From: a virus
Taxonomy: Duplodnaviria > Heunggongvirae > Uroviricota > Caudoviricetes
DNA length: 64,000 nt
IMG/VR virus record: IMGVR_UViG_3300021255_000114
Span: 1-64,000 of that record
Reading direction: 5' to 3' (one strand)
Shown: one piece after another, positions 16,952-44,998 of the stretch
How the letters are laid out: the number at the start of each line of letters is the position of its first letter
Position numbering within the stretch: position 1 is the stretch's first letter
Notes under the pieces: model-generated
The model's database searches: none
Told to the model about the DNA's origin: nothing
Seen by the model: the letters and a program-made list of their open reading frames with translations, nothing else
Program-made: the position numbers and the translations under genes

Positions 16952-17511
16952 TGTTTAAGAAAAATTTGAAAAAAAGAGTTGAGGAACTCGAACAGCGGAT
17001 TGCGGATTTGTCTGTCCCGTGTAAAAAGGAATTGAAATTTGTAAATCTATCACCGAATCCGGATCCGTGTTATGCAAAACCATACGATAGTGGATTTGAT
17101 ATTCATGCTTGGATTGATTCCAATACAGAAGGTGTACGGTTTGACAATGAGAAAAACAAATACTACATTGAAATTCAACCGAACGAAATTAAGCTAATAC
17201 ACACCGGCCTGTATTTTGACATTCCCGAATTCTGTGAAATGCAAGTGAGACCGAGAAGCGGTTATGCGCTCAGAGTCGGTTTAACAGTAAATAATAGCCC
17301 CGGAACTATAGACCAACTTTTTATAGGTGAGGTGTGTGTTATCTGTCTTAATCCGACAAAGAAAACTATTCAAATACACGGCAACGACAGAATTGCGCAA
17401 GCGGTTCTCTGTCCTGTCTATAATGAACCATTGGTGAAATTGACTAAAGTGGACAAAATCAAAAAGGAAACCGAACGTGGAATGAATGGTTTTGGAAGTA
17501 CCGGAATGTAA
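16951..17511 (+). CDS. dut: Trimeric dUTP diphosphatase
   Basis: All five motifs present: SGFDI, RPRSG, GTID..FIGE, DRIAQAV and ERG.NGFGSTG. Confidence 0.95.
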   Translation: MFKKNLKKRVEELEQRIADLSVPCKKELKFVNLSPNPDPCYAKPYDSGFDIHAWIDSNTEGVRFDNEKNKYYIEIQPNEIKLIHTGLYFDIPEFCEMQVRPRSGYALRVGLTVNNSPGTIDQLFIGEVCVICLNPTKKTIQIHGNDRIAQAVLCPVYNEPLVKLTKVDKIKKETERGMNGFGSTGM

Positions 17512-17623: not shown

Positions 17624-17630
17624 TATTTAT
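17624..17630 (+). promoter_or_regulatory. Putative late promoter (GGCTGA-TATTTAT)
   Basis: The 13-mer GGCTGATATTTAT is identical to the one upstream of the tail sheath gene. Confidence 0.6.
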
Positions 17631-17670
17631 GTATAAGAATAATACAATAGTAATAAAAACGTTAAATAAG

Positions 17671-19986
17671 ATGGCAGATAATACAAAATACCAAAAAGTG
17701 TTACAACTTTACAGAAGCACTAATGTTTGGGATACCAAGAATATTGCCAAGGCTGAAGTTGAAATTCATGCCAAACAACTTCATCCCGAAATTTTAAAAG
17801 GTTTAAGGGATGGTGAACCTATCATTGCAAAGTATTATGATAAGGCTGATGGTTATACCTTTGGATTTAGCGCACTGGACCCTAATACTGACCCATATTC
17901 CGGTGATTCGGCAACACATATATGGGTGGAAGGTTTTGACAGTTTTAAGTCAAATGAATTTGACACGGGATCCAAGAAGATCAGAGGCATTGTCCCTAAT
18001 TATGATAGCCCTGCTTATATTCGTGTTGACAATAGCGGCACTTATACTTATTACAAACTGACAGTTAGCGAGCCTTCCACACTACCAAGCCGTACTACAA
18101 GTTCTGTATTCGGTGTTGGCCTTATTAACAATGGTGTTACATACATCGAATGGTTTGATTCTGCGGCTGAGGCTAAGGGTGCTATCGGTGATCTGAACTA
18201 CAATGACAAGGATATCGAGAATGGATTTGTAGCAAAGGTAAATCAAAAAGATGGCAAAATCGAATCTATACACGGTAATATTACTGGTGAAAACGCAACT
18301 GTTGTAACCGATAATCACTATTCTTATGTAAAATTAGAGGATTCTAGCACAATTCCTGACGACTATATTTGGGATACTACGAACAGTGACAATGCATTGC
18401 CTTCTAACGTTGATGAGTCAAGACCTAAATACTATCACGTAACGGGTTCAACTACGGAAACCCAAAACGGATATTATGAACTTCGTAAGAATATTGAAGT
18501 AACACTAAAAATCACAGACACTAATAATGTCCTAAAGCAGGGTTATGCCTACACCAAAATCACTGAATCAATGGTTGTTGGTGGAGCAACCGAGTATCAA
18601 ACTCTACCGGAAGCCACTGCCGAAACACCTGTTTATATCAAAGTTGGTACTGACTATTATCATAAAGTCGGTGAAGGCTTATCCACAAATATGGTGCTTC
18701 GTGCATTAACAAACAATGAAATAACCGATTTGCAAGATACTAACATTAAAGAGGCATACCGTCTGTTTGGTAACGCAAACGGTTCTGAGACTGCCATTGG
18801 TGATATTATTAAAATATATAAGGATAGTTCGCTTTATAATGTATATCTTGGGCATGTTGACGACAATATAACAAGTCCGACGGACCCGACTGTTATTTCA
18901 GGTACAGGCTCAGAAGCACTTTGTTTCATATATCAGAAATCCGACGGGACGTATGAGTTGGTTAAAATAAATGTTGAATCATTCCTTTTGGAGAATGAAT
19001 TCAAAGATGGTTTCGAAATTAAGAATGGTGGTTATTCTTATGGTGAAATAAGTTACGATCCGTATGCCGGCGATTCAAGTAAATGGATTACAAGTGGACA
19101 AGGACAAAATGTATTCAACGAGTTGCCTTCGTCTGTTATAGAGACTTCGCCTGAATATATTAGGGTGGACACAACCATTGAGGGAACCACAACAAGTAAA
19201 TATTACAAAAAGAACTCAGCAGGTGAGGTTTATGTTAAACTCGCTTCTGATGGTGGTATTGATTTTGAAGATGAGGGAGTTAATCTCAATAAATCCTTAA
19301 AGATTAAAATTGACAACACTGATAGTAACAAATATTACAAAAAAACAACAGATCAAGCACCACAAGCGGGTGTTACATATTATACATACAATGTATCAAC
19401 AAATCAATATGATCAATTTACTGGTCAAACATTTGATACCAATACCGCTTATTATGTAAAAGACCAATATCTATATACAACATCTAATGGTCTTTCTGTT
19501 AATCAGGATGTACTTGAGAATAAAATCACGGATAATGTTGGAAAAGTATTATTTGTCAACAAAGAGCCATTTGTCAAGGATAATGATGGAAATATCAAAG
19601 CTATTGTTATAGGTGAGGATATAACTGTTGCTGGTGTTGGTAGTAACGGTCAATCAAAGCCAATGACTAACATTGTCTTGGTTGATGGCATTGTTCCGGT
19701 ACCTCAAAGTTCATTACCTACACCTTCAGATACGACACCTGATTATGTTCTTCTTACAGCACAAGCCCCATATGTCCTTTACAAAAAAGGTACGAGCGCG
19801 TATGAACCCTATACTACTCAGAATAATGATGAATATATTGAGGTTAACGGTTTCATTTACCATTTGAATGGGGGCAAATACGAACTTTATTTCATAAATA
19901 AGGACACTAATCTCAACGATGCAATCTCAATTCTTAACTACTTGACATATAACCTCGATATGGGACAATTTACAGTCACTTATTAA
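17671..19986 (+). CDS. Tail fibre-like virion protein carrying multiple inserted Tyr-rich modules; likely start ATG 17671
   Basis: Paralogous to 20115-24131 (LYR...DGEP; IKIYKDSSLY...GTGSEALCFIY...EFKDG). Ends in a LDMGQF-type motif. The ATG at 17629 falls inside the promoter motif. Confidence 0.7.
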   Translation: MADNTKYQKVLQLYRSTNVWDTKNIAKAEVEIHAKQLHPEILKGLRDGEPIIAKYYDKADGYTFGFSALDPNTDPYSGDSATHIWVEGFDSFKSNEFDTGSKKIRGIVPNYDSPAYIRVDNSGTYTYYKLTVSEPSTLPSRTTSSVFGVGLINNGVTYIEWFDSAAEAKGAIGDLNYNDKDIENGFVAKVNQKDGKIESIHGNITGENATVVTDNHYSYVKLEDSSTIPDDYIWDTTNSDNALPSNVDESRPKYYHVTGSTTETQNGYYELRKNIEVTLKITDTNNVLKQGYAYTKITESMVVGGATEYQTLPEATAETPVYIKVGTDYYHKVGEGLSTNMVLRALTNNEITDLQDTNIKEAYRLFGNANGSETAIGDIIKIYKDSSLYNVYLGHVDDNITSPTDPTVISGTGSEALCFIYQKSDGTYELVKINVESFLLENEFKDGFEIKNGGYSYGEISYDPYAGDSSKWITSGQGQNVFNELPSSVIETSPEYIRVDTTIEGTTTSKYYKKNSAGEVYVKLASDGGIDFEDEGVNLNKSLKIKIDNTDSNKYYKKTTDQAPQAGVTYYTYNVSTNQYDQFTGQTFDTNTAYYVKDQYLYTTSNGLSVNQDVLENKITDNVGKVLFVNKEPFVKDNDGNIKAIVIGEDITVAGVGSNGQSKPMTNIVLVDGIVPVPQSSLPTPSDTTPDYVLLTAQAPYVLYKKGTSAYEPYTTQNNDEYIEVNGFIYHLNGGKYELYFINKDTNLNDAISILNYLTYNLDMGQFTVTY

Positions 19987-20114: not shown

Positions 20115-23100
20115 ATGGCTGCAACAACAAATAGAAGGTTTACTGAATTATACAGGAACTCCACAGTGTTTGAAACGAAACAGGCTGCTATAACCGGTTT
20201 ATATAATCATGAACTCATAAACAGTTTAAAGGATGGTGAACCGTTGCTTGCCCGTTACATGGCATATTTTACTTGGGACGAGGGGAGCAAACAATATGTC
20301 CTTCAGTCCACGAAAAACGACAGTGCTACATTCACAAGAATTGTTTCGAATGAAACATCCGTTACTTCAACAAAGGAGTATATTGTTGGTGATATCATCA
20401 ATGTAACAGCAACCGAGGGAAATATCACAACCACAAAATCATACAAGTGTTCTTCAATACCTCAGGGTGGCGTCGCTGTGCCTGTAGGAAGTAATTTTGC
20501 AACCTCAGGATACTTTACGGAAATAACAAGTGCTTCGGTTACTCCGCAATCTGTCAAAACAATCCGTGTGTTGATGGCGGTTGCCACAGTGTTCGAGGAT
20601 AACAGCGGAAACCCTTCGTTTAAAAAAGAACCTCCAAAGGGACGGCTAACTATTTTTGAAGAGGATGATGCCATCCGTGAAATGATTAACAAGGCAAGCA
20701 TTTCAAGCCCTGATGGAACAATCAATATAAGCAATGCTGTTTCTGGTAAGGAAATACAGGTTAATCTCGGTACATCACTTGTTAAAAACACAGAGAATGG
20801 TGCTGATAAAGGCAAAATAGATGTCAATTTCGATAATAGGACTATCAGACAATACGCATCGGATTATGCAGACGAACAACTGCGAAACAAGTTGTATGTT
20901 TACCACGGTGATACCATTAAGGAATCTGAGACTACTGGCGAAGAGGGTAAATTGGATGTTAATACGGGTGTTACATTAAAGATATCTGATGGAACAGGAA
21001 GTGGTCCTGCCGCAGGTACGATAAATGTGTATCATGGAGATACTCTTGTCGAGTCAAGCACAAGCGGTGAAGTTGGAAAATTGGATGTTCGCACGGGTAC
21101 TTCTTTGAAAGTTTCAAACGGTGGCTCCGATAATCCTGATGCCGGTACAATTGATGTTAATATTGATGATGTTACAATTAAACAGAATACAACAGACAAT
21201 AAACTTTATGTCAATGTAAACCCATCATATGGTCTTGAAAGCGATTCAAACGATGGAATCAAAGTTAGACTAGGTGAGGCGCTTGCTTTCAGGACCGGTG
21301 ATTCAACAGCATCGAACAACGGTAAAATTGATGTTAAATATGATAATAGCACCATCGGTTTAAATAACAGTAACCAACTTATTGTTAATTTCCATAACGG
21401 CACAATGGAACGTAAGTCACATGAATCCGCAGGTTCCACTGTATACGATGGATGGGGTGTTAAACATGACACTACAATTACTGAGGTAAACGATGGTCTG
21501 CATGTAAATATTGACAGTACTACCATTTATCAAAATTCTAACGACTTAATATCTGTAAAACACGACACTAGTTTGAATGAAGATGCAACTAATGGGATAA
21601 GTGTCAATATTGATGGCGTAACAATCAAAAAAGATGAAACAAACAACGATGCGTTAAGCGTAAATCATGATACAACCATAACTGTAGATTCAACTAATGG
21701 CATAGGTGTTAATGTTGATGGTAAATCAATTAAACAAATTGAATCCGGAACCGATCAAAATAAGTTATATGTTAATATTGACGGTTTAACAATCAAAGAA
21801 TATCCTTCAGATTATGGAACGTCGTCTTTGCAGGATAAACTATACGTTAATATAGACAACGACACGCTTGTTTCGGACTCATCTACGGGAGTTATTTCAG
21901 TTAATTCGGCTGCTACTAGCATATTTGGTGAAAATGCAATTCAAATTGAGGAACATACCACAGGAAGCACGGTTGACGGTAAAACTGTTAAATTGAATAT
22001 TGACACAACCGCAAACACAGGTGATCCTAACGTATTAAGCCAATCTAATGACGGACTTAAAGTTAATTTGAATTTGCGTTTACTTACAGAACAAGAACTT
22101 GCAACTTTATCGGATTCAAATGTAAAGGAAGCTTATAAACTTGTTGGTAACGCCGGTTCTTCAGAAACACAAATTGGTTCTGTTATCAAGATATACAAGG
22201 ATAGTTCATTATATCGTGTATATCTCGGTCATTTTGATGATACTATTGATTCAAATGATCCACCTACTGTAACACCAGGCACAGGTTCTGAAGCACTGTG
22301 TTTCATATACCTTAAAGCCGATGGCACATATGAATTAGTGGCTGTTGACGTTGAATCATTCCTCCAGGAAAGTGAATTCAAAGATGGTTTGACCGTAAAT
22401 TCTTCAACCCACGAAGTTTCCGCAAATCTTTGGGATGGTTTGGTTATACATCCGATAACAGGTAAGAATGGTGCAATTCAAGCCAAAATAGGTAATGGTA
22501 TTCAATTCGGAACAGGAGATGAAGGCGAGAGACCATTTGAAATCAGGACAGGCAATGGTCTTGAATTCGGTACAGGAACAGAAGGACAGAGACCTGTTGG
22601 AGCAAAAATAGCCAATGGTCTTGTTTTTGGTACAGGAACCGAAGGTCAAAAAGCCGTTGAGGTTCGTTTAGGCAGCGGACTTTCTTTTGATGGAGGAACA
22701 GAACAATCACCAATTACCGACGGTGTGCGTCCTATTAAGGTCAACATCGGAGAAGGTTTGGTGATGGATAATAACAATATCAAAGTTAATTTAGGTACTG
22801 GACTTGGATTTGATGCTACAAGTGGTAATGAAGGCAAAATATACATTAACTATACTACAATAGGCGCTGCTAACCGCCCTGTATATTGGGATGGAACAAA
22901 CCATACTCCTGTTCAAATTGACTATGAAATCAATAAATCTGTTCCTGCCGATGCCGTATTCACGGATACAACCTACTCAAGCGGAAATGAAATCACCATT
23001 GACCCCACAAACAATCATATTAACCATAATGCCAAACTAGGTACTGCGTTTGTCCCAACAACCGTTGGAACAACAATCAGCGGATTCGGCGGGAGCGGTT

Positions 23101-24131
23101 CATTTAAAGTCCCGATTTTAAGTATTAATGAATATGGACATGTGACCGGTGCTTCTGAGGCTACGATGACAATTGCAATACCTGAGGCTAAGATTGTCAC
23201 TTACACAGCACCCCAATACACTCAGGGGCATTTATCACAAAATTGGGTAACCACTTACATCGATAATGCAATCACTGTGGGTGAAATTTATGATTCAGCC
23301 ATCAATAAACTTGACAACAAGATAAAGGTTCTTGCAGATGAATTGTCGGATGCTGAAGCAGTATTGACGCAAGCGATAGAAGACGAACCAAGGTACTATG
23401 CAAAATCAAGTTCGGCCGGTGACGCAAGCGCAATAACAGCTACTCTCGTTGACAGTAGAAAATTTGCCGTCGATGGCAATAATTCCAATAAACCATTGAA
23501 CGGCACTAAAGTTGATGTTTATTTCTCTACCGCACATACAACCAGTACAGCAACACTAAATATTAATAACACAGGCGCTTTTCCGCTTGTTTATAATGAC
23601 GCTAATTTTGATGCAACCCTCATTCAGGCAGGTACAACCCTTGCTCTTGTATTCGATAAGGAATATAACAGCAATGCCGGTTGCTATAGAGTTGTCGGTG
23701 GTGTCGGAAGTGGCAGTGGAAGCACAAATGGAATTACAGAAATTGATGAAGGTAATGGCATTAGCATTACAAAGAACTATGATGAAGTTCAAATAAATCC
23801 GAATGCCACGCCATATAGTAGTACTTGGTTTACTTTGAATGCCGGTGCTGATCCTGTAGTCCCAATTACGCCGGAGAATAATAAGGTTTACCGTGTGACC
23901 ACATCCGGTAACTATTATAATATGGCTTACATTTGGGATGCTGTCAATAGCAAGTATGTGCTGTCGACGGATATTAGTGTAACTGCCGCCGTTAAACTCG
24001 CCGCAAATATGATTCCCGAAGGGTCTACTTCCGGGGGTGCAAGCGAAATAAGTGGTCTTGCTACACTTCTGAAGTTTACCACAACTGGTGAACTTGCAAT
24101 GGAGAACACTTGGGATTGCGGAACCTACTAA
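20115..24131 (+). CDS. Long tail fibre protein (1338 aa) with beta-spiral shaft repeats
   Basis: Many V..D..TI and G.GL.F shaft repeats, GTG.EG.RP-type repeats x4, N.YGHVT motif, T.TLNINNTGA.P fibre domain and a WDCGTY terminus. Confidence 0.8.
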   Translation: MAATTNRRFTELYRNSTVFETKQAAITGLYNHELINSLKDGEPLLARYMAYFTWDEGSKQYVLQSTKNDSATFTRIVSNETSVTSTKEYIVGDIINVTATEGNITTTKSYKCSSIPQGGVAVPVGSNFATSGYFTEITSASVTPQSVKTIRVLMAVATVFEDNSGNPSFKKEPPKGRLTIFEEDDAIREMINKASISSPDGTINISNAVSGKEIQVNLGTSLVKNTENGADKGKIDVNFDNRTIRQYASDYADEQLRNKLYVYHGDTIKESETTGEEGKLDVNTGVTLKISDGTGSGPAAGTINVYHGDTLVESSTSGEVGKLDVRTGTSLKVSNGGSDNPDAGTIDVNIDDVTIKQNTTDNKLYVNVNPSYGLESDSNDGIKVRLGEALAFRTGDSTASNNGKIDVKYDNSTIGLNNSNQLIVNFHNGTMERKSHESAGSTVYDGWGVKHDTTITEVNDGLHVNIDSTTIYQNSNDLISVKHDTSLNEDATNGISVNIDGVTIKKDETNNDALSVNHDTTITVDSTNGIGVNVDGKSIKQIESGTDQNKLYVNIDGLTIKEYPSDYGTSSLQDKLYVNIDNDTLVSDSSTGVISVNSAATSIFGENAIQIEEHTTGSTVDGKTVKLNIDTTANTGDPNVLSQSNDGLKVNLNLRLLTEQELATLSDSNVKEAYKLVGNAGSSETQIGSVIKIYKDSSLYRVYLGHFDDTIDSNDPPTVTPGTGSEALCFIYLKADGTYELVAVDVESFLQESEFKDGLTVNSSTHEVSANLWDGLVIHPITGKNGAIQAKIGNGIQFGTGDEGERPFEIRTGNGLEFGTGTEGQRPVGAKIANGLVFGTGTEGQKAVEVRLGSGLSFDGGTEQSPITDGVRPIKVNIGEGLVMDNNNIKVNLGTGLGFDATSGNEGKIYINYTTIGAANRPVYWDGTNHTPVQIDYEINKSVPADAVFTDTTYSSGNEITIDPTNNHINHNAKLGTAFVPTTVGTTISGFGGSGSFKVPILSINEYGHVTGASEATMTIAIPEAKIVTYTAPQYTQGHLSQNWVTTYIDNAITVGEIYDSAINKLDNKIKVLADELSDAEAVLTQAIEDEPRYYAKSSSAGDASAITATLVDSRKFAVDGNNSNKPLNGTKVDVYFSTAHTTSTATLNINNTGAFPLVYNDANFDATLIQAGTTLALVFDKEYNSNAGCYRVVGGVGSGSGSTNGITEIDEGNGISITKNYDEVQINPNATPYSSTWFTLNAGADPVVPITPENNKVYRVTTSGNYYNMAYIWDAVNSKYVLSTDISVTAAVKLAANMIPEGSTSGGASEISGLATLLKFTTTGELAMENTWDCGTY

Positions 24132-24191: not shown

Positions 24192-24809
24192 ATGAAATAT
24201 TTAAGGAAATTTGCAAACAGAAGGGAATTGGCTGATTGGGAACGATTACTTGATCGCTACAATTGGTACATTTTAAAAGACATTGGTACAACCGCGCCGC
24301 CTGATTTTGTACCAAATGTAACTCCAGGTTCTACAAGGAACACTTATGACGACGTTTCTGATATCACAGATGATGTACTTGCAACAACGAGCACAAGTGT
24401 TAAAATATTCAAGGGCGGTACGCATTATTATTGCCGTATTCCAAACCATATGCTTTGGCGTGTCATTTCGTGGAAAAAAGATGATGGAACATTCGTGTCA
24501 CGCGGAAATGACGCTTGGGGTGAGGAAAAAGGTGTTGTCGGATATTTCATTCCAATGACAATTGATGAAACAGAAACACCAGGTGATTTCCTGTTGAGTG
24601 ATTTCAATGACGATTTCCTTGTTCCTGTCATGTTGGGCGAATGGCACTGGACATCCCTTGGAACAACGGCTCCTACGGGATATACCTTCACTGAAGGTCA
24701 GGATACATGTGATGACATTTCAGAAGTTACACCTGCTGTTCAAGACGACTTCCCGTATATGAAAGTCGGAAGCGTGTATTATAGGAAGGATATCGGACCC
24801 GCAAATTAA
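24192..24809 (+). CDS. Small virion-associated protein with two Tyr-rich modules
   Basis: MKYLRKF N-terminus. Internal repeats GTTAP...DD.S.....K.G..YY. Confidence 0.6.
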   Translation: MKYLRKFANRRELADWERLLDRYNWYILKDIGTTAPPDFVPNVTPGSTRNTYDDVSDITDDVLATTSTSVKIFKGGTHYYCRIPNHMLWRVISWKKDDGTFVSRGNDAWGEEKGVVGYFIPMTIDETETPGDFLLSDFNDDFLVPVMLGEWHWTSLGTTAPTGYTFTEGQDTCDDISEVTPAVQDDFPYMKVGSVYYRKDIGPAN

Positions 24810-25058: not shown

Positions 25059-28000
25059 CTAATATAAACGTGCATCATATCCAATTGATGATTCGTGCTG
25101 TACTGTTACTAACATACCCGGTAGGTGACCTGTTTCTGTTTTATCATTAAAATAAAAGAAGTTCATGGTTATGTCATTAAAATTACTGAAAAAATAAGAT
25201 TCGGCGTCTTGGGGCGCAGTTTTAATTGTATTAATAAACATTTGTAGTTTACCACCCATAGTTGTATCATTGTAAAGTTCACCTTGACTGACATTGGCAA
25301 AATTAAATGTATATTTATGCCATATATGAGAATTATTTGAACCGCCAATACTTGGTATATTAATAGTAACACTTTGATTGTTAACTGTAGCAGTATAAGT
25401 ACCTGCTTGGCCTGCTGCTCCCGCATTATATTCGTTTATATCATTGGGTAACTGGCCATCCCAGTTTGCGGTTGTCAAATATATATTAGAGTCAGTTAAT
25501 AGTGTCTGGGTTGTACAGTTAGTGCCTCCCCACATAGACGGACCATCGTTGGTTGCAATAATGTAGTTAAAATGATCGTCAAAGCCTACTGATTCATAAA
25601 TAAACCTACCAGTTGTAAGTCCTATGTCAATCAGATACATACCATATAATAATATTACAGCACCAAGAGGGATATGACCATCAAGGCCGCCGCTTTCGCT
25701 AATTTTAGCTTGCACAAAAGCATGAATGTCATTAGTTTCTTTGTCGTTAAATATATCACTAAATAAAAAACAAAGAGATTCAAATGAATTATAAGGGCTA
25801 TTCCTCTCTGTATCTATAAGATAATACATTTTCATGTGCTGAATATTGCTACTTCCACTACCTGTAGAGGTAAACGTGATTGTATCTGTACTTGCATCGG
25901 TTGTTATAGACATTCCGTTACCGGCCACTAATGTTAGCGTATCAGTAGAAGTATCGGCAACAACTGAGGATTGTCCTGAAACTTCAATGGTTTTAAAACT
26001 ATCGGTAGTACCGGTACTTATGTTTTGCCAACTGCCATCGCCACGTAGATATTTATTCTCATCGCCGTTGCTTGGCTTTGGTACAAGCCCCATTTCACCA
26101 TTAGCACTTGACGATGCGCCTGTCATTGTCGGTATATATATTGTTGTGTTACTTGCAGCATTGGTCGTGAAACTACCTGACCAAGTACTTGATGTTGTAG
26201 AATTTCCGCCTTTTAGGGTAATTGTACTGTCATTAACCGTTCCTCCGCTGCCACCGGTCCATGGGACATTGACAACCGCATATCCTGTTGTTGTATCAGT
26301 TTCGACTCTATAATATCTACCTGTTGTGCTTGAGGCTTCTGGGAAGGAGCCTGAAGCCATAGTCACGTTGCTTGCAGAAACAGCAACATCATAAGTATTG
26401 CCACCATAAGTGGTACTGCCGTCGGTTATGGATATGTTTTTATCAAAATATAGGCGTCCGCCATTTGCTCTTATTGAGTCATATGTGTTTCCATTATTAC
26501 TCCTTATGAAATGTAGTCCTTTGCCTTTATCCGATACTTCTTGAAATAATATTGAATTTGCATTGATTATGTCTGAGTTATTCATATCCAAGCCAAAACG
26601 CGGTTCTGTGCTTTGGGATTTGTATCGATTTGCTCGGACTCTAAGATAGGTAGCATGGAGATAGCCATTGAGGTTTAAACGGTCAATCCTTGTTGGCTCG
26701 GTTGTTGAAGTGTCAAAAGACAACTTTGTTTGTTGTGTAGTATATGGAGCATATGTAATTTCCGTCCCGCTATTTGAGCCGTGAAGAATAGCATCCGCCG
26801 CTGTTGCGGTGTTTGTATCGGTTGCACTGATTTTGATGTTGAAATAACTGTTGTCCCCACTTTGGCCACTTTCTGTACCGGCGGCTTGATAGTCTATGGT
26901 AACATTGTTTCCTTGAGAGAAATTAATTGCTTTGGAAGCGATGTTGGTGCCTACTCGTGAGTTTCCGTTTACATAAACATTTCTCCAAGTATCAGTATCT
27001 GTACCTCCTCCACCACCGGTGACACCGATTTCGACTGTTGTCACTCCATCTGTCGTCGTTGGGGTAAATGTAACGTTTGAACCACCTGTAACTTTAAGTT
27101 TTGGACCGATTTGTATGTTTGTGTTGGTTGTGTCCCATAAAGTGTTTCCTGTGTGCAATATCTCTTCTGTACCGCCACCTGTGTTAAATGACGCTGCACT
27201 TCCATCAGGCATGTTGACATCCTTGTCAAAGTACAAATGGCCTGCATTTGCTCGAACAGTATCATATGCATCACCGGTATTTGCTCTTCTGAAGTGCAAT
27301 CCTTCACCTAATTCCGAGGTATCTTTGAACAAGATTGAATTCGCATTTGCAATATCGGAATTATTCATATCCATACCAAAAGCGTTTGTTGATTTGTATC
27401 GATTTGCTCGGACTTTAAAGTAAGTGGCATAAAGATAACCGTTGAGATTCAACCTGTCAGTCCATGTTGGTTCACTGGTTGAGGTGTCAAAAGATAACTT
27501 TGCTGTTTGCTGTGTGGTATATGGAGCATATGTGATTTCTGTTCCGTTGTTTGAACCATGAAGAATAGTGTCTGTTGCTGTTGCAGTGTTTGTGTCAGTT
27601 GCATTAATTTCTACATTGAAGTAGTCACTTGTTCCGGCATTGTATGCGAGGGTAATGTTGTTACCCGCTTTGAGGTTTAAGCCTTTGGTGTTTGTTCCTG
27701 TATCGGCTTTAAGGCTATTATCGACATATATTCCTCGCCACGTGTTTGTGTCAGTCGCACTGAATTTTAAACTGAAATAGTCGTTACTATCCGTGCCTTC
27801 GGCTTCATAATCTATAGTGATGTTATCACCGGCTTTGTAGTTGATAGCTTTGGATTCGATATCCGTTCCAATACGTGAAATTCCATCCGTATATACATTA
27901 CGCCATGTGTTCGTGTCACTCGCACTAATTTTGATATTGAAATAGTTCGCATTACCGCTTTGGCCTGTTCCTGTTCCTGCGGGTGCATAAGAAAGACTGA

Positions 28001-28388
28001 CATTAGACCCGGCAGTAAGGTTGAGACCTTTTGAATCAGTGCTATTGTCCCCACGTAATGTTCCGTTACTGTACACACTGCGCCATGTATTCATATCTGC
28101 ATCATTCGTGTCTTTTACCTTAATCAACGCAAATGGACGTTCTAAAAGGTTGGTCGAAGAATTTAAGGTTCCTTTAACGTAATAAAGTCCGTTGTTATTA
28201 CCATCCATTGTAACTGAGATTCTCATGCCGGGAAAAGCCGAACCGTCAGAGTCATTTATATACGCTTCAGCGTGGGCTTTGGTATCCCAAATACGTTCCG
28301 CAACAATCGGTACCGGTTTACCTAAATAGAAGGTGTTAACCGTTGCAAGATTGATTTGACCAGGTACATTATACTCTATATGTGACAT
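25059..28388 (-). CDS. Tail fibre protein (1109 aa) with internal tandem duplications
   Basis: DTNTWR.VY units x4, a duplicated ILHGSN.GTEITYAPY...RANRYKS block, VNVPW, and GLVPKP...KYLRGDGSW fibre motifs. Confidence 0.8.
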   Translation of the reverse strand: MSHIEYNVPGQINLATVNTFYLGKPVPIVAERIWDTKAHAEAYINDSDGSAFPGMRISVTMDGNNNGLYYVKGTLNSSTNLLERPFALIKVKDTNDADMNTWRSVYSNGTLRGDNSTDSKGLNLTAGSNVSLSYAPAGTGTGQSGNANYFNIKISASDTNTWRNVYTDGISRIGTDIESKAINYKAGDNITIDYEAEGTDSNDYFSLKFSATDTNTWRGIYVDNSLKADTGTNTKGLNLKAGNNITLAYNAGTSDYFNVEINATDTNTATATDTILHGSNNGTEITYAPYTTQQTAKLSFDTSTSEPTWTDRLNLNGYLYATYFKVRANRYKSTNAFGMDMNNSDIANANSILFKDTSELGEGLHFRRANTGDAYDTVRANAGHLYFDKDVNMPDGSAASFNTGGGTEEILHTGNTLWDTTNTNIQIGPKLKVTGGSNVTFTPTTTDGVTTVEIGVTGGGGGTDTDTWRNVYVNGNSRVGTNIASKAINFSQGNNVTIDYQAAGTESGQSGDNSYFNIKISATDTNTATAADAILHGSNSGTEITYAPYTTQQTKLSFDTSTTEPTRIDRLNLNGYLHATYLRVRANRYKSQSTEPRFGLDMNNSDIINANSILFQEVSDKGKGLHFIRSNNGNTYDSIRANGGRLYFDKNISITDGSTTYGGNTYDVAVSASNVTMASGSFPEASSTTGRYYRVETDTTTGYAVVNVPWTGGSGGTVNDSTITLKGGNSTTSSTWSGSFTTNAASNTTIYIPTMTGASSSANGEMGLVPKPSNGDENKYLRGDGSWQNISTGTTDSFKTIEVSGQSSVVADTSTDTLTLVAGNGMSITTDASTDTITFTSTGSGSSNIQHMKMYYLIDTERNSPYNSFESLCFLFSDIFNDKETNDIHAFVQAKISESGGLDGHIPLGAVILLYGMYLIDIGLTTGRFIYESVGFDDHFNYIIATNDGPSMWGGTNCTTQTLLTDSNIYLTTANWDGQLPNDINEYNAGAAGQAGTYTATVNNQSVTINIPSIGGSNNSHIWHKYTFNFANVSQGELYNDTTMGGKLQMFINTIKTAPQDAESYFFSNFNDITMNFFYFNDKTETGHLPGMLVTVQHESSIGYDARLY

Positions 28389-28417: not shown

Positions 28418-31093
28418 TTAAGTGAATTGGACTTCTGTATATTGTAAACCGGATGCCCCGTTATGTACAGCAAATACTTGATATGTGACAATCGTGTTGT
28501 CTTCCAATTCGTAAGGTATGGTGTTTTGATAAACCCAGTTGCTTTTAACATCTTGACCAAGATAAAGTGTCCTTGTTACTGTCGCATTATGATTTGTATT
28601 GTTAACAACCGGCATTACAAGTATCATTGTAGTCTTACCGGTTTGTGCTGTCACTGTTCCAACTGTTGTCGTTCCTGTACTACACCATGCTGAAGTCAAT
28701 GATGATAGTGAAGCCTTTGTTGTAAATACAGAACTATAATCGCCGTTTGACAAATAAGCTGTTCCTCCAACAAAATATTTGTATCGGTATGAACACGATT
28801 TGCTTGCAGTTGCTGTACCGATTCCGATGATATTGTTTGATATGGTATTATCACTTTTTTTAGGTGTAACAGTCGTATCGTCTGTATATGGATAACTTGC
28901 AGTAAACGTATGTGAAGTTTCAGAAGTACCCTTAAACGCACTTGGATATGAAATGCTTGCACTGATGTCACTACCCGCCGTAAGGATACCTTGTGCATTG
29001 GCCGCCGGGTTATTAGCGATAAAGTCAGCAATGGTGTATTTCGTTGTGTCAGCTGACTGATAGTTACCTTGTGTTTTCGTGCCGCCGCTTGCCGTGGGTG
29101 TAACTGTCGTTCCAACTTCATATATTGAGTTCGGATTCCAACTCCATGTTAATGACGGGTTAACTTTTGCAACATCAATAACCACCATCAACATTTTTCT
29201 AATGATTTCTTCGAGGAAAGTTCCGACAGGGATGCTATCGCCAACCGAATATGTTCCGAGAGGATTATTGACATTGATGACTTGTGTTGTCACAGCCTCG
29301 CTGCTGCCGCTTCCAACACCACCAACAACACGATAAACACCGTTATAGTTTGTCCCGCCAATAGTGACTGTTGCTGAATCATAGACTAACGCTAACGTTG
29401 TACCGGCTTCAATGAGGCTTGCATCAAACAACGCGTTTTCATACACAAGATAATGTGCTCCGCTTGCGCCGTTCGAGCCACTAACATTCAACGTACAAGT
29501 GGATACTGTTTGATTATTTTGGAAATATATATCGAGTTTTGTTCCGTTGAATAAATTATAACGTCTACTTTCTACAAGGGTTGCTGTAAGGGCTACCGTA
29601 CCCGTTGAAGCGGTTGACGTTGTAGATTTACCATAATACCTCGGCTCATCCTCAATTGCTTGCGATAAAACGGCTTCATTATCTATAACCTCTTTGTTTA
29701 AACCCGCGATTTTATTGTCAAGTTTATTAATCGCGGTATCATAAAACATATTAGTTGTTATGGCATTGGCGTTAATAACATCTTGATATGTTGGGCTTAT
29801 ATGTGCAGTGTCATAAGTCGGTGCAGTATAGGTTGTGATTTTGTTATCCGGAAGTGTAATCGAAACGGTTGCCTCAGAAGCGTTGGTTACATGGCCGTAG
29901 TCATTAACCGTCAGTACAGGAATTTTAAATGAACCAGAACCACCATAACCACTGATAGTCGCACCTGTTGTGGTAGGTGTGAATCCACCGGAAAGTTTTA
30001 CATTGTGATTAATCGCATTACTATTACTGATAGTAATTTCGTTTCCGCTCGAATAGGTCGTATTAGTATCCGTCCAGGGGACATTAGTATAAGCAAGCCC
30101 TGTACTGTCTATAAGAACTGAGTAGCGTTTTTCTGTATTGGTGTCATCGGTTGAAGCGTTTGTAACAGCACTGTTTTTTACAGCGCCAACTTTAATTGCA
30201 CCAGCTGTATTTGTGGTTGCTGTTCCAAGATTCTTCTTTGTAACGGTGATTACTCCGTTTGTGTCTTGCGAAATTGTTGCAATAAATGATGTAGAGTTTC
30301 CATCTGCGCTCGGATCGGATACGGCTGTTTGTTTTACCTTAACCTCAGTTCCATCACTATATAGTTTTTTCGCATAAAGATAGCCATTTAGGTTAAGTCT
30401 GTTGGTTTTGGTTGGATTTACAGTTCCAAGATATAATTTACCGCCATTCCCATCAGTACCAACCCAAGTGGAATCGGCTGTTTCTGAACTGTACGGAGCG
30501 TATGTTATTTCAGAACCACTGTTTGTACCGTGTAGAATATTATCGGCAGCGGTAGCTTCGCTTGTAAACGTTGTCGTATCACCTGATACGAAATCCCAAT
30601 ACTCACTGCCTTCAGTTTCGCCGTTGAACATTAAACTTACAATTCCGGAAAGAATCCATGCATTGCTTTCTGTAAGTGTCGACCCTGCATATTTTATCGG
30701 AAACGCTCCGGTGTTGTTAATGTTAAACGTTGGATTTGCAACAGTATTTGGGTTGGTAAATTTTACTCGAATTAAAGGCCAAGTATTTTTAATGTTTGCA
30801 AGTGTATACCCTCCCGCTGCGCCGGTTATTGTTTTTGCTGCTGTACCTGATGCCGTTCCGCAAGTTAGATAATAAGGTTTTAATCCCCTTTGGAAGAATA
30901 ACTCGTTAAATGCGGTTTGTTTTCTTGCTTCCCTAAATGCTACCGTTGTAGCGTCCGGCGCGGTTACATCCGTAATGTTTGGTGGAATTATATAATGATC
31001 ATGACTAAAAATATCTTCGGTTACATTTGAATTGAAGATAATAGTTTTACTACTTTCTGTTGAATCTAAAAAACCTGATAGTGGAATTGCCAT
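28418..31093 (-). CDS. Tail fibre protein (891 aa)
   Basis: TC.TA..TAAKT, VKFTN.NTV.NPT.NINNTGA.PI and ISQDTNGVITVTK fibre motifs. Shares blocks with the 1338, 1109 and 402 aa proteins. Confidence 0.8.
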   Translation of the reverse strand: MAIPLSGFLDSTESSKTIIFNSNVTEDIFSHDHYIIPPNITDVTAPDATTVAFREARKQTAFNELFFQRGLKPYYLTCGTASGTAAKTITGAAGGYTLANIKNTWPLIRVKFTNPNTVANPTFNINNTGAFPIKYAGSTLTESNAWILSGIVSLMFNGETEGSEYWDFVSGDTTTFTSEATAADNILHGTNSGSEITYAPYSSETADSTWVGTDGNGGKLYLGTVNPTKTNRLNLNGYLYAKKLYSDGTEVKVKQTAVSDPSADGNSTSFIATISQDTNGVITVTKKNLGTATTNTAGAIKVGAVKNSAVTNASTDDTNTEKRYSVLIDSTGLAYTNVPWTDTNTTYSSGNEITISNSNAINHNVKLSGGFTPTTTGATISGYGGSGSFKIPVLTVNDYGHVTNASEATVSITLPDNKITTYTAPTYDTAHISPTYQDVINANAITTNMFYDTAINKLDNKIAGLNKEVIDNEAVLSQAIEDEPRYYGKSTTSTASTGTVALTATLVESRRYNLFNGTKLDIYFQNNQTVSTCTLNVSGSNGASGAHYLVYENALFDASLIEAGTTLALVYDSATVTIGGTNYNGVYRVVGGVGSGSSEAVTTQVINVNNPLGTYSVGDSIPVGTFLEEIIRKMLMVVIDVAKVNPSLTWSWNPNSIYEVGTTVTPTASGGTKTQGNYQSADTTKYTIADFIANNPAANAQGILTAGSDISASISYPSAFKGTSETSHTFTASYPYTDDTTVTPKKSDNTISNNIIGIGTATASKSCSYRYKYFVGGTAYLSNGDYSSVFTTKASLSSLTSAWCSTGTTTVGTVTAQTGKTTMILVMPVVNNTNHNATVTRTLYLGQDVKSNWVYQNTIPYELEDNTIVTYQVFAVHNGASGLQYTEVQFT

Positions 31094-31113: not shown

Positions 31114-32301
31114 TTATTTTACGTAATATGGATGACTTCCACTTGTTTGTGTGGACTGCGTCCTATAAAATCTATACGATTCAGTAATACCCGTTATATT
31201 ATCAGTAACATCTTTTGTTCTAACAAATTCAAGGGCTTCAAAAAATCCTGAGGCACCCCCAACACCAACTTGTGATGGCTGATTGCTGAAAGCCGCCGGA
31301 ACTGCAATATAAAAATACTGATTAGTTCCCATAGTTACAGTATATGACCTATTAACAGCGCTTGTTACAGCGGTTGTGTATCCGGTAAGGCCGCTATTTG
31401 CAAATGTTGAAATATTCAAACTCGAATCTGAAGACGCCCCATAAAAAATGTGATTAACCACGGTTATTGTTGCAGACATAGCCTTTGAATACGCGTCTTT
31501 AGTTATAGTGGTTGCCACAGAAACGTTTGAGGTTGAATTAATAGTTTTTGTAAACGTCCTGGACGTTCCTGAAGTTGTTCCGACAGTCCATCCACTTGGC
31601 GTTGATGCGTTAAAATCAGACATTGCTGAACCATTGAATGACAGTTTTGCTGTGGCTGTAACGCTCGTGTCTGTTGCTTTAAATATTACACTTGGACTAA
31701 CAGTCCAACTTGGTGAATAGTGTATGCTGTATATCAGATTATATACATCTGTAATTTCATTGTCAACATAATCTACATTTGCCTTGTAACTCCTGAATTC
31801 AACCATCTGCCCATCAGAATTTTTAATATACATCACCTCGTTGTTGGCAGATCTGCCAATGCCAACCTCACCGCTCTCCAGTTCATTTGGCATCTTGCCA
31901 ATAAGTTCATAATATGCGGTTTCGTTTACCTTTTCATAATATTTGAAACCCTTTGTTGCTATACCTATCTTAAGAAAAGCGGGGGTTGACGCACTTGCTG
32001 TTTCATATGGTGAAATGTACGCATTATTGATGTATAACGCGGTAAAGGTATTGCTTGAATTCCAAGTTTGACCGGTTGGTTCGACTGTGCCTAAAAGCCT
32101 GTAATGATAACCTGTAACTTTGATGATTTTGGGTTGTGTGGAAATTAAAGTGATAGATTCCGATGCCGGAATGAATGTATAGCCTGTGGCGGCATTATCA
32201 ATATCTGTAGTCGATGGTTTTTCCATATAATGGTACTCCACACGATCAGTGTTCACATTCTGACTATGGCGTCTGGAGACGTTTGTCTGTGGCATATGCA
32301 C
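31114..32301 (-). CDS. Fibre/decoration protein with nested Tyr-rich modules in its N-terminal domain
   Basis: The phage-fibre N-terminal motif K.P..L..GE..IG.....E..YIKNS is split by the insert. The C-terminus is Thr/Ser-rich and Ig-like. Confidence 0.65.
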   Translation of the reverse strand: MHMPQTNVSRRHSQNVNTDRVEYHYMEKPSTTDIDNAATGYTFIPASESITLISTQPKIIKVTGYHYRLLGTVEPTGQTWNSSNTFTALYINNAYISPYETASASTPAFLKIGIATKGFKYYEKVNETAYYELIGKMPNELESGEVGIGRSANNEVMYIKNSDGQMVEFRSYKANVDYVDNEITDVYNLIYSIHYSPSWTVSPSVIFKATDTSVTATAKLSFNGSAMSDFNASTPSGWTVGTTSGTSRTFTKTINSTSNVSVATTITKDAYSKAMSATITVVNHIFYGASSDSSLNISTFANSGLTGYTTAVTSAVNRSYTVTMGTNQYFYIAVPAAFSNQPSQVGVGGASGFFEALEFVRTKDVTDNITGITESYRFYRTQSTQTSGSHPYYVK

Positions 32302-40525: not shown

Positions 40526-43500
40526 ATGGCAAATAGAACAAATACAACAAGGCCACATTCAGCACCTGGTCTATATTTCAAGGATTCTGTGCAGACCTAC
40601 TCAAGCAAGTCACTTGGAATTACTACTCTTGGTGTTACGGGTGAAACACTTCGTGGTCCTGCATTCCAACCAATTTCAATCAGTAATTGGAGGGAATTCC
40701 AAACCTATTTCGGGGGTACAAGTACCGCCAAGTTCAAGGGCAGCCAATATCCGAAGTATGAACTTCCCTACATTGCCAAAAGTTACCTTGAGCAGAGTAA
40801 CCAACTTGAAGTTGTTCGTGTTCTTGGTTTATCGGGTGTAAATGCCGGTCCGGCTTGGGTTATTACAGCAACAAAACATAAAGTTTTTACTGGCTATGAC
40901 TATGTATTGCTGAGTTCAGAACCATCTGAAGAATGCGCAATTTACACAACACTCCCAAAACCACCATACATCGACGACAATTATCCCGATTACATCAAGA
41001 TTGCCTCGAACCTTGAATGGCATACATTGTGCAGTGCTTGTGACGATACTCGCATTGAGGATGAAGAGAAGCAGGTTTTTGACCTTACAAAAGGTGATAC
41101 AGTTCCTGACGCAAACACATTTACGGAGTATGATTACATCAAAGTCATACAAAAGTGGTTTTATACACCTGTTGACCACACTACAATTACTGATTTCAGC
41201 AAATACGTTACAGTGACACAATTCCCTGAGACGATTTCGGGCGAATCAGAAAAGAACATAAGAATTGCCACAATCGAAAACCCGTCAAGTGATGCTGATT
41301 ATGATTACTATGACTTGGAAAACACCGCTTATTGCTACGAAAAACAAGAAAATTATAACTACTACAAAAAAACGTGGAGATCAGGCGTACAACTTGAAGA
41401 GGAAGATTACTGTGAGGGAAATCGTAACAATATGGTTGTGGCAGTACTCCGTTCGCGTGGAGAACACAAAAAAGCAGCGTTTGTCCGTACACCGACCCAA
41501 GACGACATTGCTAATGGAATTTGCGATGATATCTATAGTTACGACGGCATAGAATATTTTGCAAAAGAGATACGTCTTGAACCTAGCAAATCATTGACAC
41601 TCGGTTCAAGTTGCAATCCGGGATTTTCAACTGTAACGGGTGATTTTACAGTCGACAGTTTCAATTACGGTACATTTACCATTGCCGTTGACACTATCTA
41701 TGGCGAAACAAAATACTACTCAGTATCTTTAAACCCGGGCGAAAAGAATTATATCTACAATGTAATCGGCGGAAATCCTGAAGAGGGTGATGCAGAAATT
41801 TACGTTGAGGAACTTTATGACGTTGCACTTCGCCAACTTATCGACGAAGGTGTGTTCAATGCCATCAACTCAGAGGTTATCAAATATCCTGCAATCAACA
41901 TTCTCCCAAAATTCGCCGACGTTGATGATATTATGACTGATTCGGTTCTCACCAAGAAATATCGCGGTAAACGCTATCTTTACAGCAATGAACTTTCCGA
42001 AGGTATAAAAGTAAGGTATAGCGAGGATGGCGGAAATACATGGTATGAAGGTGACGGCATCAATGGTGTTATTTACACAGTATTCGAGCGTACCAATGCA
42101 GCAACCGGCAAGAAAGAGTATTTCTATGGTGCATATACCGATGCCATTCAGTTCAAATATGAGATTTACGACGGTGAACCTAAAGACGTGGAATGGATTG
42201 AATGCTCGCAAACAGTTACAAACGAACAACAGAATGTCTTCGTGGCAAAACCTGAGTTTTTCGACAAACCTAATACCACGAACCCCGAATACATCAAGAT
42301 AATCACACCAAACGATAATCTTGTCAATGGTGACGATTCGATTGTTGTTGAAAATGGCGTTATTAAAGATGAAACAACCGGCACAGTAATCTCAGAAGAA
42401 AAGGTAACCTATTACCCATTCCATTTTCAGATTACAACAACGCAAACAATCGTTGGCAGAAATTCTGTAAAAATTACATTCCCGAAAAAGGCCGAACTAA
42501 AAGATTTCGAAGTTTATTCATACAGTAACCTTAATCCTAAACTTTATGAGTATGAATGGGACAAGGGAGAGGGTAACACTTTCATTTCAAGAAATGCAAT
42601 TCCAGAACTTGAACCAGGCACCTATGATTTCGTACTCTATACTACAATAGATGGTGATTATACCATCAAGATTGATGACCAGACTGTCACACTTACCGTT
42701 AAGAAGAGTAATGGTGTCAATTATGTGAAGAAAGTTACCGATATCACCGATAGCACAAGAGCAAAGAAGACAACCGAACGTCTTACGGTTTATAAATTCA
42801 GCGCAGACGTCGTTCATGGAAAATTCACGAACTGCGTGAAGGTTCTTGCTGACAATATGATTTATGTCAACAATACTACCGTTGATGATAAACATAATAT
42901 GACAGAGGATGTTTTCCCGATAACACTTGATTTCAACAACTACAAAGAACAGTACAGGTATGCTTCAACACCTTGGATAGTTTCCGAAATTAAAGGTAGC
43001 GCAGAACAGGTACAACTTGCCAAACTGTTCCGCTTCCATACGATTTCAGACGGCAACAATTCATCGCTTGAAGTCAAGATTTCAATTGAGAATATTGACC
43101 CTTCAACCGGTAAATTTGATGTTCTCGTCCGTAACTTTAATGATACTGACCTCAACACCAACGTCATCGAACGCTTTGTTGGATGTACTCTTGTTCCTGG
43201 TGACCCTGACTATATTGCGCTAAAAATTGGTTCATTCGACGAATCATATAATGCAGTTTCAAATTATATTACTGTTGAGGTTATTGAGAATGACACAACC
43301 AAGAATTCAATCCCGGCAGGATTCCTCGGATATCCAATGCGTGACTACAGTGGATTTGCTATCAAAGAGACTGCATGGAAGTACACCAAAATAGATAATC
43401 CAATGGATACATCAGTGTTTGTGAAGGTTGACAGTTTACCGGATACTGTTAAAGATACCGATCCGTGGTTTGTGTATATTGAGAGCGAAACCGGAAATAC

Positions 43501-44998
43501 ATATTACGGAAGAGAATTTGCCATCACATCAAACCCAACGCAGCCGTATTTCAAATTCAACACTGATGTTGATGAAGACATCAAGATCAAGAAACAATAC
43601 TTTGGCGTTTCCGACCTTACGGGAATCGATACCGATGCGTTGACTTATAAAGGTGTTGAGGCTTATAATGAAGTTCCCGCAGGTATGACACCTTGCTTCC
43701 ACCTTGATGCACGCATTCTTAATGGTGTGCCTAACGAGCATGGTGAAATTGAGAACGGCGATATTAAACAAACAGTTTCGGTTGACGGTATTACCGGATA
43801 CAGTTGGGTAACTGTTAACAAGAACATCACCACGAGTGAAGGTATTGAACCTCGTATCGGTTCGGAAAGTGTAATGGCCGGTACAATCTATGAAGACAAG
43901 AAATACCGTAAATTCACTGTGGCATTCTATGGCGGATGGGATGGTTGGGACTATTACAGAACCTACCGTTCGAACACCAATGAATATCGTGCCAAAGAAT
44001 ACAAAGGCTACATTAACAGTGTGAGTGGATATGGCGATATGTTTAACGTTGTTAAAAATCCTGAAGCCTTCAATTTTGATAGTAACCAAAAGGTCATAAA
44101 TTCTGACTACTATGCATATCTCGCAGGTGTCCGTCAGTTTAACAATCCTAAGTCGATTGCAATCAATGTACTTGCAACACCAGGTATTGACTATGTCAAC
44201 AACGGCCAATTGGTAAACGAAGTTATCGATATGGTTGAAGAGGATCGTCAGGATTGTATTTACGTTGTGACTACACCTGACAAACCATTCGGAGCAAGCG
44301 ACTCGAAGGACGATATGTATAATGCCGATGAAGTAGTTGCAAATCTTGAGGATTCAGATATTGACAGTAACCATACAACGACATATTATCCTTGGGTGAA
44401 GTATTTTGATGCAGACAATTCAGACTACATCTACCTTCCAATCACCCGCGACGTCGTTAAATCAATAGCTTTGACTGACAACCAGGCATTCCCGTGGTTT
44501 GCTGCGGCAGGTTGGACTCGTGGCCCGATTTCGGGAGACGCTCCAAAACGCAGACTGAAACAAGGTGAACAGGATACTCTTTATGACGGACGTATCAACT
44601 TCGTTGCAAGTTTCGCCGGCGAAGATTTCGGTGACACTAATGTAACAGACCGTATTTGGGGCGATAAAAACCTCCAGATAGCCGATAACCAACTCAACAG
44701 GCTGTCAGCACGCCGACTCTTGCTCCGCATCAAACGTATGTTACAGACTTCCTGCATTGGTCTCATCTTTGACCCGAACGACAACAACCAAACCAAGGCT
44801 ATCAGGAATTCAGTCGGAAGTGTCCTCGACTATATCAAAGAGAATCGTGGTATTACCGATTGGAGAATCGAAATCGACGATAGCCCGTCCACAACTGATC
44901 AACTCGGACGCGGTGTAACGTATTATATCAAACGCACCCCATTGCTTGAATGGATTTCATTCACGAGTGTCTTAACACCACAGGGTATGGAGTGGTAA
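40526..44998 (+). CDS. Contractile tail sheath protein (1490 aa) with large insertions
   Basis: N-terminal PGLY...G.T.RGPAF.P..I.NW.EF..YFG. C-terminal INVLATPG, YYPWV, PWFAAAG..RG, LY..RIN, WG.K.LQ, R...RRLL and F.PND. Confidence 0.95.
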   Translation: MANRTNTTRPHSAPGLYFKDSVQTYSSKSLGITTLGVTGETLRGPAFQPISISNWREFQTYFGGTSTAKFKGSQYPKYELPYIAKSYLEQSNQLEVVRVLGLSGVNAGPAWVITATKHKVFTGYDYVLLSSEPSEECAIYTTLPKPPYIDDNYPDYIKIASNLEWHTLCSACDDTRIEDEEKQVFDLTKGDTVPDANTFTEYDYIKVIQKWFYTPVDHTTITDFSKYVTVTQFPETISGESEKNIRIATIENPSSDADYDYYDLENTAYCYEKQENYNYYKKTWRSGVQLEEEDYCEGNRNNMVVAVLRSRGEHKKAAFVRTPTQDDIANGICDDIYSYDGIEYFAKEIRLEPSKSLTLGSSCNPGFSTVTGDFTVDSFNYGTFTIAVDTIYGETKYYSVSLNPGEKNYIYNVIGGNPEEGDAEIYVEELYDVALRQLIDEGVFNAINSEVIKYPAINILPKFADVDDIMTDSVLTKKYRGKRYLYSNELSEGIKVRYSEDGGNTWYEGDGINGVIYTVFERTNAATGKKEYFYGAYTDAIQFKYEIYDGEPKDVEWIECSQTVTNEQQNVFVAKPEFFDKPNTTNPEYIKIITPNDNLVNGDDSIVVENGVIKDETTGTVISEEKVTYYPFHFQITTTQTIVGRNSVKITFPKKAELKDFEVYSYSNLNPKLYEYEWDKGEGNTFISRNAIPELEPGTYDFVLYTTIDGDYTIKIDDQTVTLTVKKSNGVNYVKKVTDITDSTRAKKTTERLTVYKFSADVVHGKFTNCVKVLADNMIYVNNTTVDDKHNMTEDVFPITLDFNNYKEQYRYASTPWIVSEIKGSAEQVQLAKLFRFHTISDGNNSSLEVKISIENIDPSTGKFDVLVRNFNDTDLNTNVIERFVGCTLVPGDPDYIALKIGSFDESYNAVSNYITVEVIENDTTKNSIPAGFLGYPMRDYSGFAIKETAWKYTKIDNPMDTSVFVKVDSLPDTVKDTDPWFVYIESETGNTYYGREFAITSNPTQPYFKFNTDVDEDIKIKKQYFGVSDLTGIDTDALTYKGVEAYNEVPAGMTPCFHLDARILNGVPNEHGEIENGDIKQTVSVDGITGYSWVTVNKNITTSEGIEPRIGSESVMAGTIYEDKKYRKFTVAFYGGWDGWDYYRTYRSNTNEYRAKEYKGYINSVSGYGDMFNVVKNPEAFNFDSNQKVINSDYYAYLAGVRQFNNPKSIAINVLATPGIDYVNNGQLVNEVIDMVEEDRQDCIYVVTTPDKPFGASDSKDDMYNADEVVANLEDSDIDSNHTTTYYPWVKYFDADNSDYIYLPITRDVVKSIALTDNQAFPWFAAAGWTRGPISGDAPKRRLKQGEQDTLYDGRINFVASFAGEDFGDTNVTDRIWGDKNLQIADNQLNRLSARRLLLRIKRMLQTSCIGLIFDPNDNNQTKAIRNSVGSVLDYIKENRGITDWRIEIDDSPSTTDQLGRGVTYYIKRTPLLEWISFTSVLTPQGMEW

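Follow-up and report, generated by a model that had tools for sequence, protein, structure and literature searches.

Why should one putative fibre gene of a phage hold four in-frame segments that resemble one another, and how did they come to be there? The window analysed here is a stretch of 64,000 nucleotides, the opening 64 kb of phage genome G000, which is complete at 372,793 bp and bears direct terminal repeats. The phage is a myophage, a giant (jumbo) phage of the cattle gut. All metagenome runs containing the region were from animal gut (9 studies), with a bovine gut label on 4 of the 5 runs examined. No close annotated phage was found: the top match to the sheath was 32% identical, and the helicase shares 23-26% identity with the nearest annotated phages. 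Besides a baseplate hub and the tail sheath, the window encodes gene A and, next to it, its partial paralogue, gene B (Table 1). An earlier note had proposed that gene A carries a proliferating protein-coding module at four sites which gene B shows empty, the module being either a small adhesin or glycan-binding unit or, by analogy with the Rickettsia palindromic elements (RPEs), a selfish coding element.

Table 1. Coordinates of the features discussed. Positions are those of the window except where G000 C1 is given; aa, amino acids.
Feature	Position	Strand	Remarks
Gene A	17629..19986	+	785 aa; scaffold is a mosaic and offers six or more insert slots; probably a virion protein
Module copy m1	17851..18060	+	filled in 9/9 gene-A orthologues; pLDDT 87-95 in whole-protein model
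Module copy m2	18316..18489	+	filled in 9/9 orthologues; pLDDT 83-90 in whole-protein model
Tract exchanged in strain L086 (m3 and core)	18534..18978	+	445 bp, 209 differing columns
Module copy m3, short form	18541..18669	+	site filled in 4/9; close strains carry a different allele
Conserved core domain, unnamed	18670..19029	+	also present in gene B and in a majority of the 150 homologues listed
Module copy m4	19030..19215	+	site filled in 3/9; pLDDT 96.8 when folded alone
Fifth slot of gene A	19330..19458	+	different Tyr-rich repeat; replaced in runs X5 and X11
Module-like insert near C-terminus of gene A	19669..19788	+	absent from P0002, P0006, P0007 and P0009; 1.4-1.9 bits, membership not supported
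Gene B	20115..24131	+	1338 aa; partly paralogous to gene A; contains short tandem repeats; sites 2-4 empty
Gene B's own insert at m1 position	20259..20549	+	unrelated; edges approximate
Weaker copy in gene 24192-24809	24261-24437	+
Copy in small gene 24192-24809	24639..24788	+	7.9 bits, gene-A-only profile, weak
Copy in gene 31114-32301	31927..32112	-	E 3.5e-5, gene-A-only profile
Tail sheath	40526..44998	+	1490 aa; phrog_23, E 5e-36; three insert sites
Sheath site 1	40892..41374	+	likely three nested copies
Sheath site 1, outer copy	40892-41011 plus 41351-41374	+
Sheath site 1, middle copy	41015-41152 plus 41321-41347	+
Sheath site 1, inner copy	41153-41320	+
Sheath site 2	42149..42736	+	an unrelated insert of 133 aa (42314-42712), absent in relatives L003 and L014, interrupts the module
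Sheath site 3	43373..43513	+	single copy; 6.2 bits held out, weak
Baseplate wedge gene	G000 C1:80562

All four segments were found in gene A, in frame, and are related copies of one module of 43-70 residues. Their mutual likeness, claimed in the earlier note, is uneven: m4 scored above 2000 of 2000 shuffles against each of m1, m2 and m3, whereas the three pairs without m4 were matched by 26, 176 and 361 of 2000 shuffles. A held-out profile, built from 19 candidates picked by eye in other genes and containing no gene-A copy, scored m1-m4 at 13.0, 8.4, 15.8 and 14.2 bits. The best other ORF reached 7.3 bits and the best reversed ORF 8.2 bits, so that m2 is marginal in this test. The proposed location in beta-turns agrees with the model of the whole protein, in which each copy is predicted to enter and leave on strands that continue hairpins of the scaffold. 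Gene A itself gave no family match in sequence-family searches and no fold match for the monomer in fold searches; its orthologues begin at the Met at 17671.

Filled and empty sites were surveyed with phmmer against 1.84 billion proteins, using gene A as the query. This gave 426 matches, of which 150 were listed, including eight near-full-length orthologues; counts out of nine refer to gene A plus these eight. Of the 150 listed homologues, none but the eight orthologues plus three short forms had the module at 7 bits or above (reversed-sequence maximum 4.6 bits). The other 139 lack it at that threshold, and empty is therefore the outgroup state for gene A; in one of them, P0050, which is only distantly related, weakly similar segments occur in or next to sites 3 and 4 (E 0.016 and 0.17). 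Not every copy is optional, since m1 and m2 are filled in all nine orthologues. For gene A the copies thus do share profile similarity and the segments do not look ancestral, the two points on which the earlier note had staked its claim. Proliferation is supported more widely than was proposed, with filled and empty alleles among orthologues of gene A, the sheath and the baseplate-region genes, and with empty outgroups.

The segments of gene A yield conflicting trees, P0001 grouping with P0005 at the N-terminus and with gene A at the C-terminus; gene A is therefore a mosaic. In gene A and P0001-P0003 the fifth slot is taken by a second kind of insertable repeat, also Tyr-rich; other orthologues have other inserts there, that of P0005 being a module copy. 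Inside the core of six orthologues (P0002-P0006 and P0009, near window position 18870) lies a further, unrelated insert type of ~60-70 aa, doubled in P0009 and absent in gene A, P0001 and P0007. P0091 is a 252-aa minimal gene A consisting of the N-terminal domain, m1 and the C-terminal domain, with no core.

Gene B contains no module copy. The claim that it shows the empty sites held for sites 2, 3 and 4 and failed for site 1, where ~95 unrelated residues stand. When the paralogues were aligned pairwise, they matched only over a 133-aa core (60% identity) and, near the N-terminus, over 51 aa (33%, E 0.002), and gene B is a weak witness for the empty sites. Its repeat-rich middle (window 20788-22848) is a second hypervariable block, runs X3 and X5 having a shorter, different region there. 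Its C-terminal third has a 239-aa block (56%) in common with window 28418-31093, a gene that clusters with 25059-28388, both being mosaic and fibre-like.

The earlier reader had missed the nesting, the extra insert slots of gene A and the copies carried by six or more other genes. A six-frame scan with a profile of 26 curated copies gave 16, 8, 8, 0 and 0 matches in G000 and the related phages G001, G002, G003 and G005 (26 of these 32 matches are training rows). All but one (31/32) were in frame in long ORFs without stops, the exception being weak (E 0.035) and located in an 89-aa ORF. In G000, 15 matches fell in seven genes (12 of the 15 are training rows) and one in an 89-aa ORF; with split and weak copies, partly counted by eye, the total may be ~22 in nine genes. 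A second profile, made only from 26 gene-A-family copies, was searched against 1094 ORFs of G000. It recovered two copies in C1:97887-101660 (E 6e-8 and 1.6e-7) plus a third (E 0.03), one copy in gene 31114-32301 (E 3.5e-5), one in C1:106836-107828 (E 0.003) and one in the sheath (E 0.012). Reversed decoys scored at most 4.2 bits and locally shuffled decoys up to 10.7 bits, which makes the sheath match and the third match in C1:97887-101660 borderline. This profile also matched G001 and G002, with no match in G003 and G005.

Five module-bearing genes behind the baseplate wedge gene have filled versus empty alleles. G003 is empty in all four of those for which it has an orthologue, and G005 is mostly empty, although one site of its 1258-aa gene holds a segment that resembles a diverged module. 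The sheath alone has a named virion role; the other hosts were placed as virion genes by their position behind the wedge gene and by Flg_new_2 and similar domains, and the module-bearing genes are likely all virion genes. The Flg_new_2 and Fib_succ_major domains in these genes also hint at a host among the Bacteroidota or Fibrobacterota. The G002 orthologue of C1:97887-101660 (L050:4871-11116) has grown to 2081 aa through a pair of large inserts, both Cys-rich and weakly matching Ig-like domains; a module copy harbours one of the two. A Fib_succ_major-domain protein of G001 (L032:12312-14180) has a nested module pair at its C-terminus, where the G003 and G005 orthologues differ.

For the tail sheath, 24 loci were reduced to 17 distinct full-length sheaths including the query; duplicates, three fragments and an ORF whose N-terminus is foreign were set aside. 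The spacers at sites 1, 2 and 3 measure 152-276, 111-234 and 64-77 aa in the query and its relatives L003 and L014; elsewhere, where measured, they are 15-38 aa. Site 3 is filled in 3 of the 17 distinct full-length sheaths, and L002 has site 2 filled and site 3 empty. In the sheath tree the empty L009 is the sister of the filled query and L003 (support 0.99). Polarity is mixed, and copies have been gained, lost or transferred. Between G000 and G002 the sheath modules are 35% identical and the rest of the sheath 69%. L005, L011 and L015 have a different insert, of 250-290 aa, in the site 1 turn (site 1 only).

Several copies apparently sit nested within a further copy, at its hairpin turn. The recurrent pattern is for a copy to stop after its second-last strand, for a second copy to be inserted, and for the missing Tyr-Tyr strand to follow. 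Each candidate was assessed by scoring the first part rejoined to the displaced last strand against 200 random controls with two profiles; split points and strands were chosen by eye, so the control counts are optimistic. Rejoining raised the profile score, which was beaten by 4 and 2 of 200 controls for the sheath outer copy, 8 and 7 for the sheath middle copy, 3 and 4 for one G001 gene, and, for the C1:94446 gene, 1 and 1 in G000, 6 and 0 in G001 and 21 and 3 in G002. In gene 31114-32301 (6 and 3 of 200), an outer copy (32113-32238 plus 31900-31923) likely encloses copy 31927-32112. Support is weak for the copy split by the 133-aa passenger of sheath site 2 (27 and 13 of 200 controls), and a G002 copy hosts a 443-aa passenger with sub-threshold Ig-like matches. 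One further proposed nest was rejected, 198 and 199 of 200 controls being equally good.

We modelled m4 alone with AlphaFold from an alignment of 26 copies from mixed sites. The five models were alike (pLDDT 96.8, pTM 0.81), with three strands of at least 3 residues (4-7, 43-50 and 53-61), a first strand and then a closing hairpin. An m4-like strand pattern recurs four times (pLDDT 64-95) in the model of the whole gene A product, whose mean pLDDT is 75.6 and pTM 0.38. The module is thus predicted to fold on its own with its ends side by side, and from the strand pattern and the empty alleles the first and last strands would pair. There was no Pfam (26 copies scanned), PHROG or structural match, and PF17481 (sheath domain II) was not among the matches in the Pfam scan of these copies or the fold searches; short models score low in fold searches, so the lack of a fold match does not prove a new fold. 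The copies are rich in Tyr, Trp, Pro and acidic residues (Tyr 11.5% versus 5.7%), each having a net charge of -4.9. Of the two closing Tyr residues, the first is conserved in 46 of 46 copies (26 of them from the gene-A family), and the conserved aromatics may form a core rather than a binding face. In all module comparisons pN is below pS, with pS saturated between G000 and G002.

Conservation lies in the protein. Identity at codon positions 1, 2 and 3 over 27 copies is 0.45, 0.45 and 0.31, against expected values of 0.27, 0.29 and 0.27, and it is here that the analogy to RPEs broke down, as neither hairpins nor intergenic or off-frame copies accompany this bias towards positions 1-2. RPEs are classed with MITEs, and only about half of them lie within genes, according to the account in PMC10969869. 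The module is like them in its ~150 bp, its in-frame presence in unrelated genes and its conserved peptide; it differs in lacking DNA-level conservation, a palindrome and intergenic copies, no terminal repeats were seen at junctions read by eye, and its hosts are probable virion genes, those of RPEs being metabolic genes. That a short DNA or RNA inserts itself and is translated only by chance would fit the similar size and the in-frame copies in unrelated genes (PMC10969869, in part), and old copies could have shed their DNA signals. However, the DNA of the 27 copies showed no shared ends or target-site duplications at junctions inspected by eye (given their age, the copies may have shed any such marks), and no inverted repeat bounding a copy was seen among the 25 longest of 52 shown. 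Folding energy was ordinary in 25 of the 27 copies, with z above -0.8 in 13/13 G000 copies and below -2 in only 2/27. All 13 nhmmer matches with E < 0.01 were coding copies in frame, and, the weak match in the 89-aa ORF aside, neither nhmmer nor the six-frame scan found an intergenic or off-frame copy. No copy was seen in any recognised enzyme gene. The complete genome gave no match to the reverse transcriptase family PF00078 (controls matched in 3 of 14), and on that account does not qualify as carrying a diversity-generating retroelement. The selfish-element reading is largely refuted, and we give it very little credence.

Exchange at existing sites was observed between close strains. The near-identical strain L086 differs from the window in 41 columns over the 10.7 kb before the exchanged tract and in none of the 299 bases after it, at which point L086 ends. 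Its m3 allele is 36% identical to that of the window and 81% to that of L087, and its core allele is also different. The tract is what homologous recombination in the flanking scaffold would give. In run X5 positions 18533-18790 are replaced, with the left edge as in L086; this run is from a study other than that of X3, and X3 and X11 retain the m3 allele of the window. No move to a new site was caught among 52 copies: for 34 the closest copy occupied the corresponding site of a different genome, for 7 it lay at a different site within the same genome or protein, and for 11 it was neither.

We consider it probable that the module is an insertable, optional surface ornament of one jumbo-phage lineage, making many weak contacts to host-cell or gut surfaces. 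Ends that meet would let it replace a turn and leave the host protein unbroken, and nesting and longer projections would follow because the module's own hairpin turn is again an insertable site. New sites would arise by rare non-homologous (illegitimate) copying into surface turns, the module's own included, and copies would be retained only where tolerated on the outward particle surface. Homologous recombination in the flanking scaffold may then shuffle, replace or remove them, and multivalent display on the polymeric sheath would provide the many weak contacts. Adhesion is the least certain step, evenly balanced against a spacer or stabilising role, and the adhesin or glycan-binding role of the earlier note is plausible. 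A more ambitious version, which we hold only tentatively, is that a new miniature fold acts as a self-extending socket for turns of sheath, baseplate and fibre-like proteins, taking copies and larger domains into its own loops. The result would be exchangeable, branched antennae covering the entire tail in jumbo phages of the ruminant gut, with allele exchange tuning adhesion or host range.

Were the module instead a structural spacer or protein-protein cement, stiffening or cross-linking sheath and baseplate subunits or holding larger domains off the particle without a ligand of its own, one would understand the 133-aa insert within the sheath site 2 module and the 443-aa insert within the G002 copy, and stabilisation is among the roles proposed for extra sheath domains in the part of PMC9230969 that treats them. 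The sites are empty in many relatives, though, and the same module stands in unrelated proteins with different neighbours, and we regard this alternative as unlikely. Near-neutral accretion, in which a compact insertable domain is tolerated in outer loops for little benefit, would account for the patchy gains and losses in the sheath (L009, L002) and for the greater divergence of its modules between G000 and G002. It sits badly with pN below pS in every comparison, the motif conserved over 46 copies, the retention of the module in three strains and the concentration of allele exchange on the module slots of gene A, and appears quite improbable. Least credible of all is that the segments are ancestral and were deleted in other lineages, or are convergent Tyr-rich loops: against the losses or transfer that the sheath tree requires, the diverged segment in G005 and the several non-significant pairwise scores stand the 139 of 150 listed homologues without a module, held-out profile tests that succeed in both directions and a single fold predicted from a mixed-site alignment.

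The surface-ornament reading, which we favour, has a known counterpart in the Ig-like accessory domains of phages. The phage Ig-like domain is a beta-sandwich of about seven strands and ~90 residues. Such domains (Big_2, FN3 and others, in Hoc, major tail, fibre and baseplate wedge proteins) are, as far as the sources consulted go, portable and optional and occur in several virion classes, as the module does. About a quarter of tailed phages are reported to have them, on heads, tails, wedges or fibres, with weak carbohydrate binding proposed (excerpts of PMC7602432 and PMC8718954). By contrast, the module is about half the size, has three model strands rather than a beta-sandwich, always lies inside a turn, nests in itself and was found here in only one phage lineage; its size (43-80 residues) and strand count set it apart from the Ig-like fold. 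In contractile sheaths of types 2 and 3, optional domains lie at a distance from the tube; jumbo phages have more of them, and some extra domains are built from two separate chain regions (passages of PMC9230969). These outer domains are mostly Ig-like sandwiches or helical, unlike the module, which is smaller, has no Pfam match and occurs also in non-sheath genes. Lectin-type surface domains of jumbo phages are among the subjects reviewed in PMC7824862. The module family, its size and the absent fold match are new; the pattern of a portable virion ornament is already known.

If the favoured reading is right, a small, confidently modelled and unnamed domain has been grafted by nature into at least seven proteins and into itself, and would offer a natural loop-insertable display scaffold. 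The role of optional outer tail domains, adhesion or stabilisation, would become testable on a 50-residue object, as would the spread of a domain among unrelated genes without a mobile element. The module would also show which surface turns tolerate insertion in the sheath and in baseplate-region proteins that lack annotation, for a clade of gut jumbo phages that is uncultured.

Some further features of the genome were recorded. In the dUTPase gene upstream of gene A (window 17267-17326), run X3 has 334 other letters replacing 58, an insertion or replacement in an enzyme gene. In the remainder of G000, a RecA-like ORF (C1:70848-71993) and DnaK- and DnaJ-like ORFs (C1:130109-133315) were labelled by eye, and 19 tRNA genes are clustered at C1:164146-178172.
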